DNA of 64,000 nucleotides, taken from assembly GCA_037137655.1 (NCBI GenBank), contig JBAXJX010000001.1, forward strand, positions 225,188 through 289,187, given 5' to 3'. This document shows, in pieces, positions 4,980 through 63,973 of this stretch; positions within the stretch are counted from its first letter, which is position 1; every line of letters begins with the position of its first letter. Below the pieces are notes generated by a model that made no database searches, was not told where the DNA came from, and saw only the letters and a program-made list of their open reading frames with translations. The position numbers and the translations under genes were made by a program. This stretch comes from Candidatus Falkowbacteria bacterium (GTDB lineage Bacteria; Patescibacteriota; Patescibacteriia; Patescibacteriales; UBA12465).

Positions 4980-5558
4980 TTATTCCTTTATTTTTGATTT
5001 TAAATAGACTTCGAAGAAATCTTCGGCTTTAGAAAAGTCTAAACCGATATGTTCTTCAAAGAAAATTAAAAAATCTTTATCAAAGCCATCTTCCATTCTT
5101 TTCTTATGAACATCATCGTGATGGTCGGCAGAGTATGGTTTAATTACACCATCTTTAAAATGAAAATTAGTGCTTTCGTTAAAGAAAAACAGTTCTCCGT
5201 TTTCAATTTTGTATTTGAGCTTGGCCATGTGCATATAGATAGCTAGACTATATAATTGTTGTATATCAAGGCCAAATACCTTGATAAAAATGTCATACGG
5301 AGTGTAGCTATTGTAATCAAGGCAAAGTAAGCTGCTGCGCATAAGATTTGTGTAATAATCTCCACTATTTTCAAGATTGATATAACGCTCACCATTTTTC
5401 CATTCAGTGATTAATTTTGGTCCAAGTTGATCCCAGAGTTTTATAATTGGCTCTAAGAAATTGAGACTACCTTTGTCTAAATAAAACTTAGTTTTAATTT
5501 CTATTCTATAATAAATATGGGCCAAAAAAATTATCCAAATTTTTTGTTCAGTTTTCAT
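4980..5558 (-). CDS. hypothetical protein (orphan)
   Basis: 192-aa ORF bracketed by a near-consensus promoter (5610-5638) and a terminator (4938-4973). No recognisable domain. Confidence 0.6.
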   Translation of the reverse strand: MKTEQKIWIIFLAHIYYRIEIKTKFYLDKGSLNFLEPIIKLWDQLGPKLITEWKNGERYINLENSGDYYTNLMRSSLLCLDYNSYTPYDIFIKVFGLDIQQLYSLAIYMHMAKLKYKIENGELFFFNESTNFHFKDGVIKPYSADHHDDVHKKRMEDGFDKDFLIFFEEHIGLDFSKAEDFFEVYLKSKIKE

Positions 5559-5609
5559 GATTTATAAGTATTAAATTGTTAGGGAACTATATTTATTTTG
5601 ATAATGACA

Positions 5610-5638
5610 ATTGTATCACGTTTTTAGCAAAAAGTCAA
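5610..5638 (-). promoter_or_regulatory. promoter P1 (TTGACT-N17-TGaTACAAT family)
   Basis: Minus strand reads ttgactttttgctaaaaacgtgatacaat, with an extended -10 TG. By hand count it is 25/29 identical to P2 (12360-12388) and 23/29 to P3 (22530-22558). Confidence 0.6.
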
Positions 5639-5685
5639 TATATAGCGAGATAAGCCAGTGAAATCAGGGGTTTTTTACGCGCAAC

Positions 5686-5881
5686 CATCCCCGAGCCACC
5701 ACACCTGAAGCGGGCGAAGCTTTCTTGGAAAGGTTGAGCAAGCGCGAAATCTTTTCAAAAAGATTTGCACGCTTCACCCCACACAGTTAGCGGCATTCTA
5801 CCGAAGATTATTAAAAGGACTATTTTTTAATCTTTTTTAAAAGTTTCGACCAGCTTCGGATACGGTGGGCTCGGTGAGGGC
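5686..5881 (-). repeat. inverted-repeat element: ~85-nt block U1 (5768..5686, minus orientation) plus inverted half-copy H1 (5838-5881)
   Basis: Arms 5686-5725 and 5838-5881 are imperfect reverse complements around a ~112-nt spacer. U1 is ~80% identical by eye to block U2 at 12197-12283. Confidence 0.5.
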
Positions 5882-5890
5882 TTTTTCAGT

Positions 5891-5920
5891 AATAAAAAAG
5901 CTCATCACGAATGATGAGCT
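5891..5920 (-). terminator. intrinsic terminator of ORF 5942..6277
   Basis: AGCTCATCA-cgaa-TGATGAGCT hairpin (5899-5920) followed on the minus strand by TTTTTT (5898..5893). Confidence 0.75.
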
Positions 5921-5941
5921 TGGTAATAGATGAATATTTTT

Positions 5942-7475: not shown

Positions 7476-8345
7476 ATGAAATTATTAATATTGGGGTATA
7501 AAGGTAATTTAGGCGGACAACTATTGCAAGTGTTTGCCAAAAATTCGACTTACGAAATTTTTAAATTAGATCGTGAAGATTTGGATATTACCAATAGCCA
7601 AGCAATACTCGAAAAAATAAATACTATTAAACCTGACATCATAATTAATGCAACGGCATACAACGCAGTAGATAAATGCGAAGAAGAACCACGCGAATAT
7701 TCTTTGGCTAAAAAAATTAACGGCGAAGCGGTGGCTACTTTAGCGCACGCCGCCTTGGTTAATGGCGCAACTTTAGTACATTATTCTACGGATTATGTTT
7801 TTGCTGGTGACGCGACAGCTGGTTATCAAGAAAGCGATGCGCCGGCACCAATCAATAATTATGGTCAAACCAAATTATTGGGTGAGCAGGCGATTTTAAA
7901 TTTAGCGAAAGATGGTTTGAAATATTATTTAATTAGAACTTCAAAATTATTCGGACCACGTGGCGCAGCCGAAGTTTCTAAACCAAGTTTTTTTGATATC
8001 ATGTTGAATTTAGCGAAAACTAAAAGTGAGATTGATGTGGTGGATGAAGAAATTAGTGCTTTTACTTATACGCCAGACTTAGCGAATCGCACCAAAGAAA
8101 TTTTAGAAGGGGACAAGTCTTATGGAATTTATCATGTAACTAACACTGGTTATGATACTTGGTATCGGGCCGCCAAAGAATTATTTAAACTTGTTGGCGC
8201 TGATGTTAAAGTTAATCCGATTCCGGGTGATAAAATGCCGCGGCCAGCTTTGCGCCCAAAGTATTCCGAACTTATGAATACTAAATTACCAGCCTTACGT
8301 GATTATCGTGATGCTTTGCGGGAATATTTAGATATTAAAAAATAA
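7476..8345 (+). CDS. rfbD: dTDP-4-dehydrorhamnose reductase
   Basis: RmlD-like protein (YSTDYVF, NNYGQTKLLGE) in the operon position after rfbB. Confidence 0.9.
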   Translation: MKLLILGYKGNLGGQLLQVFAKNSTYEIFKLDREDLDITNSQAILEKINTIKPDIIINATAYNAVDKCEEEPREYSLAKKINGEAVATLAHAALVNGATLVHYSTDYVFAGDATAGYQESDAPAPINNYGQTKLLGEQAILNLAKDGLKYYLIRTSKLFGPRGAAEVSKPSFFDIMLNLAKTKSEIDVVDEEISAFTYTPDLANRTKEILEGDKSYGIYHVTNTGYDTWYRAAKELFKLVGADVKVNPIPGDKMPRPALRPKYSELMNTKLPALRDYRDALREYLDIKK

Positions 8346-8354
8346 TAAAAAAAT

Positions 8355-9080
8355 ATGCGTGGAATTATTTTATCAGGTGGAAATGGAACTCGTTTGCTCC
8401 CGTGCACCAAGGTAACCTCAAAACAACTTTTGCCGATTTATAATCGACCAATGATTTATTATCCGCTTAACACCTTGATTAAGGCAGGGATTAAAGAAAT
8501 TTTAATTATTGTTTCACCGCGGAACTCGGGTGATTATTTGAATTTGCTCGGTAGTGGTCGAGAATTTGGTGTGAAGTTTACTTATGAAATTCAAGATAAG
8601 GCCGATGGCTTGGCTCAAGCTTTCATTATTGGTGAAAATTTTATCGACAATGAGGACGTTTGTATGATTTTAGGTGACAATATTTATGAAGATGATTTTT
8701 CCGAGGAAATAAAAAGTTTTAAAGGTGGCGCAAAAATTTTCGCGACACCCGTGAAAGATCCAGAGCGTTTCGGTGTGGTGGAATTTGATGAACAAATGAA
8801 TGCGATTTCCATTGAAGAAAAACCGGAGAAACCAAAATCAAATTATTGTGTTACTGGTTTATATATTTATGATCACCGTGTCGTGGAGATTGCTAAAAAT
8901 TTACAAGCATCGGAGCGCGGTGAATTGGAAATTACTGATGTGAATCGTTGGTACTTAGAGCGCGGTGAATTGGAAGTAGCGAAGTTTAAGGGGGAATGGA
9001 TTGATGCTGGAACTTTTGAAAGTTTTGCGGCGGCGCAGGAATTGGCGCGCACCAAGTTACAAGATAAAATGGTAATTTAA
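8355..9080 (+). CDS. sugar-1-phosphate nucleotidyltransferase, short RmlA-like form (paralog 1)
   Basis: GGNGTRLLPCT..SKQLLPIYNRPMIYYPL signature of the glucose-1-P thymidylyl/uridylyltransferase family. At 241 aa it is shorter than classical RmlA. Confidence 0.8.
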   Translation: MRGIILSGGNGTRLLPCTKVTSKQLLPIYNRPMIYYPLNTLIKAGIKEILIIVSPRNSGDYLNLLGSGREFGVKFTYEIQDKADGLAQAFIIGENFIDNEDVCMILGDNIYEDDFSEEIKSFKGGAKIFATPVKDPERFGVVEFDEQMNAISIEEKPEKPKSNYCVTGLYIYDHRVVEIAKNLQASERGELEITDVNRWYLERGELEVAKFKGEWIDAGTFESFAAAQELARTKLQDKMVI

Positions 9081-9095
9081 TTATAATAAAAAACT

Positions 9096-9821
9096 ATGCG
9101 TGGAATTATTTTGTCAGCTGGAAATGGAACTCGTCTTCGTCCTTGCACGAAAGTGACTTCCAAAAATCTTTTACCGGTTTATAATCGACCTTTGATTTAT
9201 TATCCACTTAACACTTTGATTAAGGCGGGAATTACGGAAATTTTAATTATTGTTTCGGCGCGTCATGCGGGTGATTATTTAAATTTACTTGGTAGCGGTA
9301 AAGAATTTGGCGTGAAGTTTACTTATGAGATTCAAGACAAGGCTGATGGTATCGCCCAATCTTTTATCATTGGGGAAAATTTTATTGACCAAGAAGATGT
9401 TTGTTTAATTTTGGGTGATAATATTTTTGAAGATGACTTTGCTAAACAAATAAAAAGTTTTAAGAGCGGGGCGAAAATTTTTGCAACACCTGTGAAGGAC
9501 CCAGAACGTTTTGGTATTGTTGAGGTGGATGATAAAAATAATGCTGTTTCAATTGAGGAGAAGCCAGCTAAGCCAAAATCAAATTTGTGTGTGACCGGAC
9601 TTTATGTTTATGACCATCGAGTGGTGGATATTGCTAAAAATTTAAAACCATCAAAACGAGGCGAACTAGAAATTACGGATATAAATAAATGGTATTTAAA
9701 AAAGAAAGAATTGGAAGTAGCAAAATTTAAAGGCGCCTGGATTGATGCCGGAACTTTTGATAGTTTGGTGGAGGCCCAAGTGTTAGCTAAAAAGAAATTA
9801 CACAAAACAATGACAATATAA
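9096..9821 (+). CDS. sugar-1-phosphate nucleotidyltransferase, short RmlA-like form (paralog 2)
   Basis: Same length as, and roughly 80% aa identical (hand count) to, the gene at 8355..9080. Intact ORF. Confidence 0.8.
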   Translation: MRGIILSAGNGTRLRPCTKVTSKNLLPVYNRPLIYYPLNTLIKAGITEILIIVSARHAGDYLNLLGSGKEFGVKFTYEIQDKADGIAQSFIIGENFIDQEDVCLILGDNIFEDDFAKQIKSFKSGAKIFATPVKDPERFGIVEVDDKNNAVSIEEKPAKPKSNLCVTGLYVYDHRVVDIAKNLKPSKRGELEITDINKWYLKKKELEVAKFKGAWIDAGTFDSLVEAQVLAKKKLHKTMTI

Positions 9822-9825
9822 ATTT

Positions 9826-11118
9826 ATGGCGAAAAATATTATTTCAAATCAAGCACCGAAGGGAATGGCTGATTGGTTGCCAGCTGAGTTTGCGGTGCGC
9901 AATTACATTTTTACAACTTGGGAGAAAGTTTGTCGGGCTTATAATTTTGAAAGATATCTAACCTCCACTTTAGAAAATGCTGACGTCTATCGCGCTAAAT
10001 CTGGGGAGGATATTGGTGGTAAAGAGTTGATGGTTTTTGTTGATCAAGCCGGACGGGAATTAGCCTTGCGCCCAGAGATGACTCCAAGCGTGACCCGTTT
10101 AGTGTCACGGGTTTATGATGCTTTGCCAAAGCCGGTGAAGTTTTTTTCCATTGCCAATTTTTTTCGCAATGAAAGACCACAACGCGGACGTAACCGTGAA
10201 TTCTGGCAATTAAATTGTGATATTTTTGGCAGTGATAATATTGCCAGTGATATTGAAATTTTAACCTTAGCGCTCGATTTAGTTTTAGCTTTTAATCCAC
10301 CACGCGATTCTTTTGTGATGAATTTAAATAGTCGTCATTTAATCGATGGCTTATTGGATTCGTTAAAATTAAAGTCGGAGCAAAAAATTCCGGTCGTGCG
10401 CTTACTTGATAAATATACAAAATTAAGTGCTGATAATTTTCTTGGCGCCTTACAAGAATTAAGTTTAAATAATAATCAGATTGATGAGATTGTTAAATTT
10501 TTGAGCAGCCGCAATTTAAATGAATTGGTGGAACGCTTGCCAGAATTTTCTAAGAATAATGGTTATTTAGAATTAAAGAATATTTTTGATGAATTGGAGG
10601 CCTTGGGTTATGGCGATTACATCGAATTTAATGCTAGTGTCATTCGTGGTTTTGATTATTACGATGGCATGGTATTCGAAGTGTTTGATAAGCATCCGGA
10701 TAATAATCGCGCCATGTTTGGTGGTGGTCGTTATAACGGCTTGTCTGATATTTTTGGGGTGAAGAATTTTCCGGCTGTCGGTATGGCACCAGGTGATGAA
10801 TCAACTCGTTTATTTTTAGAGAGTTGGGGATTAATCGAAAAATTAGATTTAAATAAAAACGATAAATTATTATTTTTACCGTTACTTGATAAGACTCTAA
10901 GTTTAGCCACCAAAAAACTAGCGCGCACTTTACGTGGCGCCGGTTATCAAGTGGAGATGAGTTTTGAAGTAATTAAAATGGGAAAGGCACTGGAATATGC
11001 CAATAAAAAGGGAATCGGCAGTGTAGTGATTTTTGGTGGCGATGAAGCGACGAAAAAAGTTTACAAGATAAAAGATATGCAGACTGGCACCGAGAAGGAA
11101 GTGAAAATTAAAATTTAG
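9826..11118 (+). CDS. hisS: histidyl-tRNA synthetase
   Basis: Class II motifs (LRPEMTPS, FRNERPQRGRNREFWQ, GGGRY) plus a C-terminal anticodon-binding domain. Confidence 0.9.
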   Translation: MAKNIISNQAPKGMADWLPAEFAVRNYIFTTWEKVCRAYNFERYLTSTLENADVYRAKSGEDIGGKELMVFVDQAGRELALRPEMTPSVTRLVSRVYDALPKPVKFFSIANFFRNERPQRGRNREFWQLNCDIFGSDNIASDIEILTLALDLVLAFNPPRDSFVMNLNSRHLIDGLLDSLKLKSEQKIPVVRLLDKYTKLSADNFLGALQELSLNNNQIDEIVKFLSSRNLNELVERLPEFSKNNGYLELKNIFDELEALGYGDYIEFNASVIRGFDYYDGMVFEVFDKHPDNNRAMFGGGRYNGLSDIFGVKNFPAVGMAPGDESTRLFLESWGLIEKLDLNKNDKLLFLPLLDKTLSLATKKLARTLRGAGYQVEMSFEVIKMGKALEYANKKGIGSVVIFGGDEATKKVYKIKDMQTGTEKEVKIKI

Positions 11119-11750
11119 TTTTTAAAATAATCTTTGACTGGCGCAAAGCTGCGGCGATGAATCGGGCAAGGACCGTGTTTAGCTAATTTCTCCAAATGTA
11201 ATTTAGTGCCATAGCCTTTGTGCTGCGCAAATTCGTATTCGGGATATTTTTCGTGTAGTTGCATCATCAAATAATCCCGACTCACTTTGGCAATGATCGA
11301 GGCGGCGGCAATACAAAAAACACTGGCGTCACCGCCAATGACTGCTTCTTGGTTTTGTACCACTTTAGGAATTTTAAACTTACCATCAGTCAATATAAAA
11401 TCCGGTTTTACGCCGGATTTTTCTATAGCCGTGCGCATGGCCATAAAACTAGCCTGCAAAATATTTATCTTATCAATTACTTTGTGATCACAAACGCCAA
11501 TACTAACTGAAGTGGCGTATTTTTTGATGAGTGGAAAAAGTTTTTCGCGCGCCTTAGCACTTAATTTTTTGGAGTCATTAATTAATTTTAATTCTTCGGC
11601 GTCAGCGGAAAAGTTTTTATCAACCACCACACAGGCCGCGACCACCGGGCCGGCAAGGGGACCACGACCAGCTTCATCCACCCCAGCTACAAATTCGTAG
11701 CCAAGTTCAAATAGCGCTTGTTCTTTGTTTAAATTTAATTCGGTTTTCAT
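11115..11750 (-). CDS. rnhB: ribonuclease HII
   Basis: GVDEAGRGPLAGPVV catalytic motif. ATG at 11750 (MKTELNL) preferred because the track start at 11765 lies inside the REP-like hairpin. The stop overlaps the hisS stop. Confidence 0.9.
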   Translation of the reverse strand: MKTELNLNKEQALFELGYEFVAGVDEAGRGPLAGPVVAACVVVDKNFSADAEELKLINDSKKLSAKAREKLFPLIKKYATSVSIGVCDHKVIDKINILQASFMAMRTAIEKSGVKPDFILTDGKFKIPKVVQNQEAVIGGDASVFCIAAASIIAKVSRDYLMMQLHEKYPEYEFAQHKGYGTKLHLEKLAKHGPCPIHRRSFAPVKDYFKN

Positions 11751-11759
11751 AATTTTGTT

Positions 11760-11788
11760 TGTCATTCCCGTGTAGACGGGAATCCAGG
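11760..11788 (-). repeat. REP-like palindromic element, copy 1
   Basis: Minus strand reads CCTGGATTCCCGtctacaCGGGAATGACA (7-bp stem), ending 9 nt before the rnhB ATG at 11750. Confidence 0.6.
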
Positions 11789-12196
11789 AGTTTATACTTT
11801 AATCATAGCTCATTAATGATTTTTTCTAAAGCCCCCTTGAAAATTTTAAACTTAAAATTTAAAGCCTCTTATGAAATATCGCCCCTGAAGCGAGTCGAGA
11901 CTTTTTACGGGAAATGTAGCCGCTAGGCGAATTTCGCGGAAAAAGGGCTCGATCGATTCGCCCAAGATATTAAAATCACAAAAGAAAGTGGAGTCTCAAG
12001 ACGAAGCGAAATTACAAGTATTAGATTATAAAAATTGACGTGACCGAAGACTAAGAAGACGGTTATTTATTAATATAAAAACAAAATAGCGCTCTTAATA
12101 ATCTCCGGTATCCTCTCTTAGAACTTTTATTACTATACCAATCACTCCACTTAAGTTCCGTTTACTTCATAGCTCTTTTAAGCCTGGGTGAATCTG

Positions 12197-12283
12197 GCAA
12201 AGCTTTTGAAAAAAGATTTCGCTCTTCGCTCAACCTTTTTTAAAAGCTTCGCCAGCTTCGGGATACGTTGGCTCGGTGAGGGC
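12197..12283 (+). repeat. conserved ~85-nt block U2 (homolog of U1 at 5768..5686)
   Basis: gcaaagcttttgaaaaaagatttcgctcttcgctcaaccttttttaaaagcttcgccagcttcgggatacgttggctcggtgaggg aligns with the reverse complement of 5686-5768. Its 3' half is ~88% identical by eye to 5838-5881. Confidence 0.5.
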
Positions 12284-12359
12284 CGCGTGTGAAAATGCCG
12301 GTTTTATTAGCTTATTTGGCTAATTACAGCCGCGTGTCCGCTTAGCGGGCTATACGCGG

Positions 12360-12388
12360 TTGACTTTTTGCAGTAAATGTGATACAAT
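12360..12388 (+). promoter_or_regulatory. promoter P2 (TTGACT-N17-TGaTACAAT family)
   Basis: ttgactttttgcagtaaatgtgatacaat, 48 nt upstream of the ATG at 12436. Confidence 0.6.
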
Positions 12389-12435
12389 GTTTAAATATAA
12401 AAATAGTAATTTAATAATTCAAAAGGCATATAGTC

Positions 12436-12657
12436 ATGGCAAAGAAAAGTAAAATTCTTGGAGTTTCGGAAATTTTATATGATGAAAACGGTCAACAAAT
12501 AGCATCTATTTGCAGATCAACCAAACCATCATCCGCAAAACAAATTATCAGAGAAATGACTAAAGCTGGATATTGTCCAGTCGGTGTATCTGATTTTTGT
12601 AAAATATCTGAAACATTAAAAAATGGCGGTCAGGTATTAATCGCTTCTAAAAAATAA
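12436..12657 (+). CDS. hypothetical small protein (orphan)
   Basis: 73-aa ORF between promoter P2 and a terminator (12663-12701). No recognisable domain. Confidence 0.5.
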   Translation: MAKKSKILGVSEILYDENGQQIASICRSTKPSSAKQIIREMTKAGYCPVGVSDFCKISETLKNGGQVLIASKK

Positions 12658-52630: not shown

Positions 52631-52666
52631 AAGCCATGTTATTTAAGATAACATGGCTTTTTTATT
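52631..52666 (+). terminator. intrinsic terminator
   Basis: AAGCCATGTTAT-ttaa-GATAACATGGCTT followed by TTTTAT. Confidence 0.7.
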
Positions 52667-52673
52667 TGTTATA

Positions 52674-52702
52674 TTGACACAATTAGTATTATATTGTAGA
52701 GT
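52674..52702 (+). promoter_or_regulatory. candidate promoter
   Basis: TTGACA (52674-52679)-N17-TAGAGT. Confidence 0.4.
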
Positions 52703-53447: not shown

Positions 53448-53456
53448 TTTCTTTAA

Positions 53457-53490
53457 AGCCACCTTACTTAATGTAACGTGGCTTTTTTAT
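53457..53490 (+). terminator. intrinsic terminator
   Basis: AGCCAC-15 nt-GTGGCT followed by TTTTTAT. Confidence 0.65.
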
Positions 53491-53498
53491 TTGGTCAC

Positions 53499-53527
53499 TT
53501 GACATAAATCCGCCCATCTATTATAAT
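53499..53527 (+). promoter_or_regulatory. consensus sigma70 promoter for rplJL
   Basis: TTGACA (53499-53504)-N17-TATAAT (53522-53527). Confidence 0.65.
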
Positions 53528-63894: not shown

Positions 63895-63902
63895 GTCTGG
63901 TG

Positions 63903-63934
63903 GTCCTGTTTTTTAAATAAAACAGGGCTTTTTT
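63903..63934 (+). terminator. intrinsic terminator
   Basis: CCTGTTTT-ttaaat-AAAACAGG followed by GCTTTTTT. Confidence 0.7.
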
Positions 63935-63944
63935 ATTTGTCTTA

Positions 63945-63973
63945 TTGACAAATATCTTTAATTATGATATCAT
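63945..63973 (+). promoter_or_regulatory. sigma70-type promoter at the window edge
   Basis: TTGACA (63945-63950)-N17-TGaTATCAT (-10 at 63968-63973). An ATG follows at 63981. Confidence 0.5.

Follow-up and report, generated by a model that had tools for sequence, protein, structure and literature searches.

Bacterial interspersed mosaic elements (BIMEs) and REPINs are made of palindromic units of about 20-40 nt, which stand as inverted pairs around a linker, are species-specific and are not accompanied by target duplications. Single-strand hairpins are recognised in the IS200/IS605, REP/RAYT and attC systems, the orientation of palindrome-associated transposable elements (PATEs) is tied to replication, and the modules of the BOX repeats follow the order boxA-boxB(n)-boxC. 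In the literature drawn on here, populations of REPINs are studied (PMC8049555), the Correia elements (CREE) of Neisseria are treated (PMC2649163), small mobile sequences and MITEs (miniature inverted-repeat transposable elements) are reviewed (PMC2229807, PMC10969869), the pneumococcal BOX, RUP and SPRITE repeats are described as modular and intergenic (PMC3049150), and highly similar promoter regions before non-homologous genes within one prokaryotic genome are reported as reused or 'mobile' promoters (PMC3575422). The present analysis concerns a gap without a credible open reading frame (ORF) at 11766-12435 of a 64,000-nt stretch of DNA (the window) from Candidatus Falkowbacteria bacterium (assembly GCA_037137655.1), corresponding to positions 225188-289187 of contig JBAXJX010000001.1 (C1). 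The gap holds one copy of a palindromic repeat, termed E, and a predicted promoter cassette, termed P. E forms a new family among repeats of a known kind. Its copy at 11857-12283 is of full length, and E is read as a palindromic mosaic element of 330-430 nt, non-coding and non-autonomous, that is probably MITE-like or BIME-like and interspersed in the genome. The assembly measures 1.04 Mb in 13 contigs (C1 to C13), with 36% G+C and 95.6% completeness, and positions given without a contig name are those of the window.

Copies, anatomy and spread of element E

The gap at 11766-12435 lies between rnhB and a 73-aa ORF, and its content is E, P and about 90 nt of unique spacer. For this interval, the ORF list contains no more than four ORFs, of 30-55 aa. 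When ORFs were mapped crudely on the four large contigs, intergenic gaps had a median of 42 nt, and only 12 of 992 measured at least 600 nt, indicating that the gap is exceptional. The ORF list and the genome-wide gap sizes thus confirm the initial annotation of this DNA, which had described an ORF-less gap in a tightly packed genome.

The gap and a second gap of 383 nt (5559-5941) were compared with the genome by iterated BLAST, and 24 merged loci with a total of 6.4 kb were obtained. E modules were present in 15 of these; the other nine, eight of them short (31-86 nt) and one, C1:132782, of 96 nt, were P-only. The E loci are located on C1 (25493, 133419, 171389, 230746, which is window 5559-5941, 236953, which is the gap copy, 301010, 340047, 480778, 483459, and 568635), C2 (5114, 180192, and 277750) and C3 (23442 and 43584), and range from 115 to 430 nt. 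All 16 loci examined were intergenic, and an ORF of at least 80 aa was found in none of the 16. The gap copy 'igr2' (427 nt, plus strand, running from the left 'a' end to the right 't' end) is the longest of the 15; its identity to C1:25744-26072 was 92% over 330 nt, and to C1:483461-483833 it was 83% over about 400 nt.

The assembly has two contigs that end within E, C1 at 568920 and C3 at 43698, as expected of an assembly-breaking repeat. Public DNA contigs over the region break at 11914 and 12238, and the summed depth, about 45 outside the repeat, reaches about 440 within it; a contig joint skipping 12068-12193 derives from other copies, those without the module 'v' described below. E breaks assemblies and marks accessory loci of the lineage.

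A complete E is ordered as a terminal inverted repeat (TIR), a hairpin (about 75 nt, imperfectly paired), the core (about 155 nt), an extra 75-nt module in three copies, an inverted copy of the hairpin, and a second TIR. In the gap copy, the left TIR (variant 'a', GCCTCTTATGAAATA..CCTGAAGC) was placed by alignments at 11864-11891 (+), inverted relative to the right end, and is followed by the left terminal palindrome (hairpin type A, 11887-11959, +). The core module b2 (11955-12110, +; about 155 nt) is purine-rich on the plus strand and carries the conserved blocks AAGACGAAGCGAAATTA and ACCGAAGACT, with a 17-mer found in 12 copies. The variable module 'v' (75 nt, 12111-12185, +) is complete otherwise only in C1:25493 and C1:483459, and a segment of about 20 nt is found here in other copies. 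The right terminal palindrome (hairpin type C, 12190-12259, -) is an inverted homologue of types A and B, and the right TIR (variant 't', GCTTCGG.ATACG.TGGCTCGGTGAGGGC), placed by alignment at 12255-12283 (+), is part of a block named U2.

Among the terminal repeat variants, 'a' corresponds to GCCTCTTATGAAATACCGCACCTGAAGC and 't' to the reverse complement of GCTTCGGATACGGTGGGCTCGGTGAGGGC. In C1:340047 and C3:23442, both ends are of the 'a' variant and inverted. The 't' end was found at nine genome sites at no more than eight mismatches, every one inside E loci, and its 29 nt occur in inverted pairs, for example C1:25659-25687 (-) with C1:26044-26072 (+). The second E+P locus of the window, 'igr1' (5559-5941), is a short E without most of the core, with a type-B hairpin at 5706-5776 and a 't' end at 5853-5881; its P cassette (-35 to -10 at 5638-5610, minus strand) is predicted to drive a 192-aa ORF (4980-5558).

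The feature had initially been delimited as 11789-12196, which cuts through the repeat unit, the true copy being 11857-12283. The view that the region is made of U and P blocks common to the 5.6-5.9-kb region holds, and the region is in addition non-coding and highly structured. A hairpin of about 58 nt had been reported, and it exists, with arms at 11901-11915 and 11931-11945 that are 87% complementary, but the full stem-loop is longer and spans about 73 nt (11887-11959), with a DNA fold of -22.4 kcal/mol, where shuffled sequences gave -12.05 +/- 2.36 (z -4.39) and none of 200 did as well. The partial inverted copy of U noticed at 11881-11906 was recovered as the outer arm of the left end together with the TIR, inverted relative to 12236-12283. 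A second hairpin of equal length, which had not been stressed, is present at 12190-12259, where 24-nt arms are 88% complementary (z -3.2 on the plus and -6.0 on the minus strand).

It had also been proposed that the gap is a decayed larger copy of a 5.7-kb element, that is, the decayed end of a composite element bounded by U and P at 5.6-5.9 kb and 12.2-12.4 kb. U and P are indeed found at both places, inverted and with P pointing outward. However, the same blocks occur at 13 more loci without such spacing, the housekeeping genes hisS and rnhB lie between the blocks, and the rnhB/hisS neighbourhood is partly common to relatives without E (hisS on the same locus in 12 of 24). Both U and P have members throughout the genome, with E at 15 loci and P at 12-18 sites, and are not the ends of one 5.7-kb unit. 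The gap copy, the longest in the genome, keeps both terminal palindromes, the core and both TIRs and is not decayed. An origin from such a composite element is hardly credible on these grounds.

Copying of E has been recent. Identity reached 98.6% over 362 nt between C1:301027-301387 and C1:481140-480779, and 99.3% over 284 nt between C1:480779-481062 and C1:568637-568920, the latter up to the contig end. When 300 nt of flank were included, the similarity of these near-identical copies stopped sharply at CTTACTTAT... and ...GGTGAGGGCTTT, and the flanks were unrelated. E has probably spread as DNA to about 15 intergenic sites, and E and P have propagated separately and also as joined E-P units.

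The orientation of the core relative to the ends divides the copies into a set of seven (the gap copy, C1:25493, 171389, 340047, 483459; C2:180192; C3:23442) and an opposite set of five (C1:133419, 301010, 480778, 568635; C2:277750). In the clearest case, the copies at 171389 and 301010 agree in strand at their ends (7-96, 96.7%; 251-360, 92.7%), and their middle aligns in reverse only (72%). The inverted core is bounded by the terminal palindromes, which are mutual inverted repeats, so that a single recombination between them explains the flip. A middle segment found in both orientations against collinear ends and bounded by long inverted repeats, in a genome that encodes serine and tyrosine recombinases, could also point to an inverton, in which a middle of about 190 nt flips between inverted terminal palindromes of about 75-85 nt and alters the expression of neighbours. 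This is very unlikely, since orientation is fixed within subfamilies (5/5 and 7/7 assigned copies), the inverted cores are only 72-79% identical, the core of the gap copy contains no promoter-like site, and one old inversion suffices; no strand-changing joint was seen in contigs either, which is a weak argument because contigs drop rare variants. The constancy of core orientation within a subfamily argues for an old event rather than an active switch.

For the distribution of E, the 427-nt gap copy was compared by BLAST with 40 relatives from 17 families, and a single match of 27 nt was obtained. Among 147 other genomes of the family, which include no other genome of the same genus, no spanning match was found; matches of 19-42 nt occurred in 24 genomes, most of them in the AT-rich query segment at about 190-245 (best E value 3e-5), and a covariance model of the hairpin gave only 23-24-bit matches, in two genomes. 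Exact-pattern scans returned 0 matches in one genome per GTDB species, in IMG/VR and, with two patterns, in metagenome contigs of JGI; such patterns detect near-identical copies only, and distant relatives of E may be missed. Neither E nor P was matched by BLAST in phage and plasmid collections. E is restricted to its own genome among those searched and, on the sequences compared, appears to be lineage-specific.

Compared with described systems, E resembles MITEs in being short (less than about 600 bp), non-coding, dispersed in several copies and bounded by TIRs; it departs from them in that no target-site duplication was seen and no autonomous insertion sequence with the same ends was found in the genome. 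With REP, BIME and REPIN sequences, compared by architecture and not by sequence, it shares the intergenic location, the non-coding nature, the inverted palindrome pairs around a linker, the module mosaic, the species specificity, the single-strand hairpins and the lack of target duplications, whereas its palindromes are longer (about 75-85 nt vs about 20-40 nt), its linker is a conserved core of about 155 nt, its loci number about 15, and no RAYT/Y1 was found in the assembly. Like the Correia elements, E is small, non-autonomous, TIR-bounded, gene-adjacent and linked with promoters, and has a conserved core; unlike them, it has its promoter in a separate adjacent cassette and not formed by an end of E, it carries long subterminal hairpins besides the TIRs, and no parent insertion sequence was found.

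The PATEs of IS200/IS605 have one-strand subterminal hairpins, no target duplication and a replication-tied orientation in common with E, but E has true TIRs, its hairpins are inverted copies of each other and not both on the top strand, the better-folding strand differs by end, and no Y1 TnpA was found. The modular intergenic architecture with variable content and stable predicted hairpins is similar to that of the BOX, RUP and SPRITE repeats of Streptococcus pneumoniae; E differs in host phylum, sequence and module order, with an inverted pair around a core as opposed to the boxA-boxB(n)-boxC of BOX. No relevant paper on interspersed palindromic repeats (MITE, REP) in Patescibacteria or the candidate phyla radiation was found by full-text search of one library. 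Such repeats are little documented in Patescibacteria, and a family of 15 loci is small enough for copy-by-copy study.

The promoter cassette P and its association with E

The interval 12291-12435 (+) is a copy of a cassette of about 110 nt with a predicted promoter and 5' untranslated region (5'UTR), itself a lineage-specific repeat, which would provide the 73-aa ORF with a near-consensus promoter of the sigma-70 type. This copy (block P2) consists of an upstream module (12291-12317), a 42-nt insert (12318-12359), the -35 and -10 hexamers and a 5'UTR up to the ATG at 12436. In the promoter scan, -35 TTGACT (12360-12365) and a TG-extended -10 TACAAT (12383-12388) were separated by a 17-nt spacer, with 10 of 12 consensus positions matched. 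A 29-mer core that includes the spacer, TTGACTTTTTNCTAAAAACGTGATAYAAT, has 18 sites at no more than seven mismatches and 12 at no more than three in the same genome; in the other family genomes, matches at no more than three mismatches were found in 2 of 147 (one match and three matches). The similarity between P copies reaches about 40 nt upstream and through the 5'UTR of about 50 nt up to the start codon.

The 42-nt insert between the upstream module and the -35 hexamer forms a small hairpin of its own, and a variant with a different inner hairpin is present in the P copy at C1:25541. A direct repeat of GCCGCGTGT surrounds the upstream module (12281-12289 and 12329-12337). No obvious Shine-Dalgarno motif was recognised on reading the P leader.

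The ORF behind P2 (12436-12657, +) encodes 73 aa, belongs to no Pfam family, and was matched in none of the 147 family genomes and only by itself among 5.8 billion protein clusters (40-128 aa). A metatranscriptome contig of 197 nt spans 12417-12613 and matches this ORF region exactly, which is compatible with transcription from P2 and is no proof of it, as DNA can occur in such libraries. None of the 12 scanned ORFs downstream of P copies reached the Pfam cut-off, and these ORFs are mutually unrelated or only partly related. They include 4980-5558 (-) and 12436-12657 (+) in the window and others in L003, L004, L005, L009, L011, L016, L018, L019, and L032; many of them start with lipoprotein-like signal peptides, as judged by reading the sequences.

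P thus resembles reused promoters, with 12 sites at no more than three mismatches and a common upstream module and 5'UTR before unrelated orphan ORFs, and differs from them in being physically coupled to a palindromic repeat at half its sites and in serving almost only orphan genes. Among 12 P sites at no more than four mismatches, eight were on the C-rich (presumed lagging) strand, three on the G-rich strand, and one at a skew switch.

E and P are associated. Of the 15 E loci, 9 have P beside them, in every case directed away from E; E stands alone at six loci, and P stands alone at 9 of 18 sites. The hypergeometric probability of this adjacency is 9e-14 over 992 gaps and 2e-6 over the 149 gaps of at least 150 nt, both crude values since copies are non-independent. 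Seven loci have P beside the A/B hairpin, and in the gap copy it is found beside the 't' end. Two E-P junction sequences were found, each common to three loci, indicating that several E-P pairs arose by the copying of a joined unit rather than by separate insertion.

The same association could mean that E is, or has become, a cis-acting DNA module of a P regulon, i.e. an upstream binding platform, cruciform insulator or supercoil buffer before strong P promoters of orphan genes for secreted or lipoprotein-like products, kept for function and not as selfish DNA. The outward direction of P at the nine shared loci would agree with this, as would the restriction of both E and P to their own genome among those searched and the presence, by eye, of other promoter-like hexamers after the 't' end of the P-less copies C1:301010 and C1:568635. 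However, six E loci lack P and nine P-like sites lack E, P is found at either end of E, the common junctions represent copied pairs and not independent associations, no binding protein or motif was identified, and the reading is itself compatible with a mobile origin. A regulatory role as the reason for the upkeep of E is therefore considered improbable. A functional coupling would illustrate the way in which new genes become connected to expression in a reduced genome.

Strand-specific folding, replication polarity and candidate enzymes

In total, 26 hairpin places of three types (5 A, about 10 B and about 11 C) were recognised. The type-A hairpin, present in five copies, is 94-100% identical among them. 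A covariance model built from the 22 distinct hairpins returned 24 matches of 65-102 bits in the same genome. The types vary at many positions, and a stem of about 25 bp is kept by all. Of 21 predicted hairpin pairs, nine stay paired through two-sided changes, most of which separate the three types and hence represent few events.

All 22 distinct hairpins folded better when read from the outer end inward than as the reverse complement, with a difference of 2.5-10.6 (mean 6.8) kcal/mol. In the gap copy, the left palindrome gave RNA folds of -31.6 (+) and -26.7 (-) kcal/mol, and the right palindrome gave DNA folds of -22.0 (-) and -16.1 (+). The table of hairpin pairs contained 54 G.U and 7 A.C cells, with wobble positions that vary between types. 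This strand preference and the excess of G.U indicate that pairing is seemingly maintained on one strand, which points to a single-stranded form, either DNA or RNA.

The sign of the GC skew switches on C1 at about 355 kb from plus to minus (cumulative maximum, terminus-like) and on C2 at about 115 kb from minus to plus (cumulative minimum, origin-like). In all ten loci with both hairpin types, the direction from the A/B hairpin to the C hairpin and 't' end matched the sign of the skew (seven '+' and three '-'), all along the G-rich strand; the two-sided probability is 0.002 if the loci are independent. The truncated copy C2:180192 follows this rule, polarity is absent from the two copies whose ends are both 'a', and four loci without P on the side of the A/B hairpin also obey it.

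An RNA form of E was considered as well. The initial annotation had offered an unannotated non-coding RNA (ncRNA), and E may accordingly be read as a family of structured ncRNA genes of about 330-430 nt, with a closing helix, two long hairpins and a central domain, transcribed from 'a' to 't'. A whole E copy folds beyond shuffles on both strands (z -3.98 on plus and -5.38 on minus), the pairing kept through double changes and the ratio of G.U pairs to A.C mismatches would suit an RNA, the polarity is co-directional with replication in 10/10 loci as in many strongly expressed RNA genes, and most copies end with GAGGGC followed by T's. However, no match at the gathering score of Rfam 15 was found in the 64-kb window, and none on E in five other copies, where the sole match was an unrelated tRNA. 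No promoter-like site was found by the promoter scan inside 11857-12283, nothing is conserved upstream of the 'a' end, and the two ends of one copy differ in the better-folding strand. The core is inverted in five copies, modules are swapped or missing elsewhere, and some copies have identical end types, which is hard to fit to one RNA architecture. The comparison with relatives, one half of what the initial annotation had named as a refutation, counts against an RNA gene too, as E was found in 0 of 147 family genomes. An ncRNA function thus has a slim chance at best, and one of the 12 largest gaps in a compact 1-Mb genome is explained by a repeat and its cassette, so that annotation as an ncRNA gene or a broken large element is unwarranted.

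When the Rfam search was relaxed to E values of no more than 10 on 11600-12600, 13 sub-threshold matches appeared, mostly to miRNA and snoRNA models (best 22.6 bits against a cut-off of 82), which are due to the long hairpin and were rejected. ARAGORN detected neither a tRNA nor a tmRNA gene. In a metatranscriptome run of the same sample, a single contig, the 197-nt one on the 73-aa ORF, was found over the 2.5 kb compared, and E, rnhB and smr had none; the run comprises only 68 million letters, as contigs, so that missing cover on E is no evidence about its transcription.

A coding function of the core was also rejected. The pyrimidine-rich strand of the core is stop-free for 47-77 codons in most copies, which is attributed to base composition. 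No ATG, GTG or TTG start is present in this frame of the gap copy until 20 codons before the end, 1-nt gaps occur in five of nine other copies, and substitutions by codon position are distributed 60/35/55.

For E as a MITE- or BIME-like repeat, it is a tentative suggestion, on balance doubtful, that it is handled as single-stranded DNA hairpins at the replication fork. This would follow from the pairing of hairpins on one strand, the lack of visible target duplications and the polarity along replication. E would then be recognised or moved like substrates of the HUH/REP type or the attC type. In comparison with integrons, which have attC arrays beside intI, the E loci are dispersed without an array and only one tyrosine recombinase gene was found. 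The more specific scheme in which E and P form a replication-oriented cassette system is unlikely; in it, the strand-specific hairpins would be recognised by an enzyme on the template of the lagging strand, and E would be copied into intergenic DNA by itself or joined to P, thereby placing strong promoters, and perhaps insulating palindromes, before newly arisen or acquired orphan genes for secreted proteins in an ultra-small genome.

Several results weigh against E as a mobile repeat of this kind. Target-site duplications were not seen at the flanks of the three copies that are 98.6-99.3% identical, and neither an empty site nor an excision product was seen, the data being contigs, which break inside the repeat, instead of reads. 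E copying could be due to recombination or gene conversion instead of transposition. A long gap upstream of rnhB also occurs in another genome (L041, one of three relatives inspected). The maintained hairpins, the compensatory changes, the G.U asymmetry and the co-orientation with replication are also expected of a transcribed structured RNA, and the counts of 10/10 and 22/22 overstate the number of independent events, as the copies are related and 7 of the 10 polar loci carry P on the same side. The single-strand mechanism is without its enzyme, and the inverted-end layout is unlike the ends of IS200/IS605. A Y1/HUH transposase (PF01797) had 0 matches in the 95.6%-complete assembly, a control search giving matches in 6 of 14 named genomes, and no transposase with E-type ends or parent insertion sequence was found in the assembly, from which a copy could be missing, given its completeness and the two contigs that end inside E.

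Other enzymes encoded in the assembly were considered as partners and rejected. The TnpB (PF07282) ORF fills only the 1-kb contig C13, which has no similarity to E; DDE_Tnp_1 (PF01609) was found only on C8, C10, and C11, contigs likewise without similarity to E; and the rve integrase (PF00665), at 134 kb on C2 with a weak match on C12, has no sequence in common with E. One large serine recombinase (PF00239; C1:61 kb) and one tyrosine recombinase (PF00589; C1:365.7 kb) were found, and the flanks of neither, nor those of the rve gene on C2, matched E by BLAST. The tyrosine recombinase gene lies near the skew switch of C1. The small contigs C5-C13 (1.0-4.4 kb; the transposase-bearing ones 1-1.7 kb) may be unassembled insertion sequences or bin contaminants. 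C6 contains a 1283-nt tandem duplicate of a 407-aa ORF, and one ORF of C7 has a signal peptide of the Bacteroidota style, as read from the sequence.

E joins several testable features, namely recent copying without target duplications, strand-specific hairpins, replication polarity, an inverted core and coupling to a propagated promoter cassette.

Setting of the gap and further repeats in the window

The left neighbour of the gap is rnhB (RNase HII; 11115-11765, -), which matches Pfam RNase_HII at 2.9e-47 and whose transcription runs away from the gap. A hairpin with a 7-bp stem seen in the sequence (ATTCCCG / CGGGAAT, 11764-11783) overlaps the first rnhB ATG (11765), and an in-frame alternative ATG at 11750 may be the true start. 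The spacer upstream of rnhB (11766-11856) is unique, AT-rich and outside the repeat, as BLAST similarity to the repeat begins at gap position ~92-95 (window 11857-11860). A weak promoter-like site was found in it by the promoter scan on the minus strand (11830 to 11802).

The closest RNase HII genes in public genomes are 60-68% identical. From relatives, 24 rnhB loci were fetched; a hisS homologue was present on the same locus in 12 of 24, and the neighbourhood is only partly syntenic. In the three relatives inspected, the divergent gap upstream of rnhB measured 30-129 nt in two (L037 and L038) and up to about 780 nt, with small ORFs only, in L041. These gaps serve as context and not as a strict empty site, given the 60-68% identity of rnhB, the different neighbourhood and the inspection of 3 of 24 loci. 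Two freshwater metagenome runs contain 95% of the sampled words of the region.

Elsewhere in the window, two adjacent 241-aa ORFs (8355-9080 and 9096-9821) form a tandem duplication at 8334-9826, with 83% identity over 300 nt at a distance of 741 nt. A further small family of repeats, 52 nt long, is present in three copies (52631-52682, 53456-53507, and 63902-63953) with 71-100% identity, and consists of a terminator-like hairpin and T-run followed by a promoter sequence of the TTGACA type.

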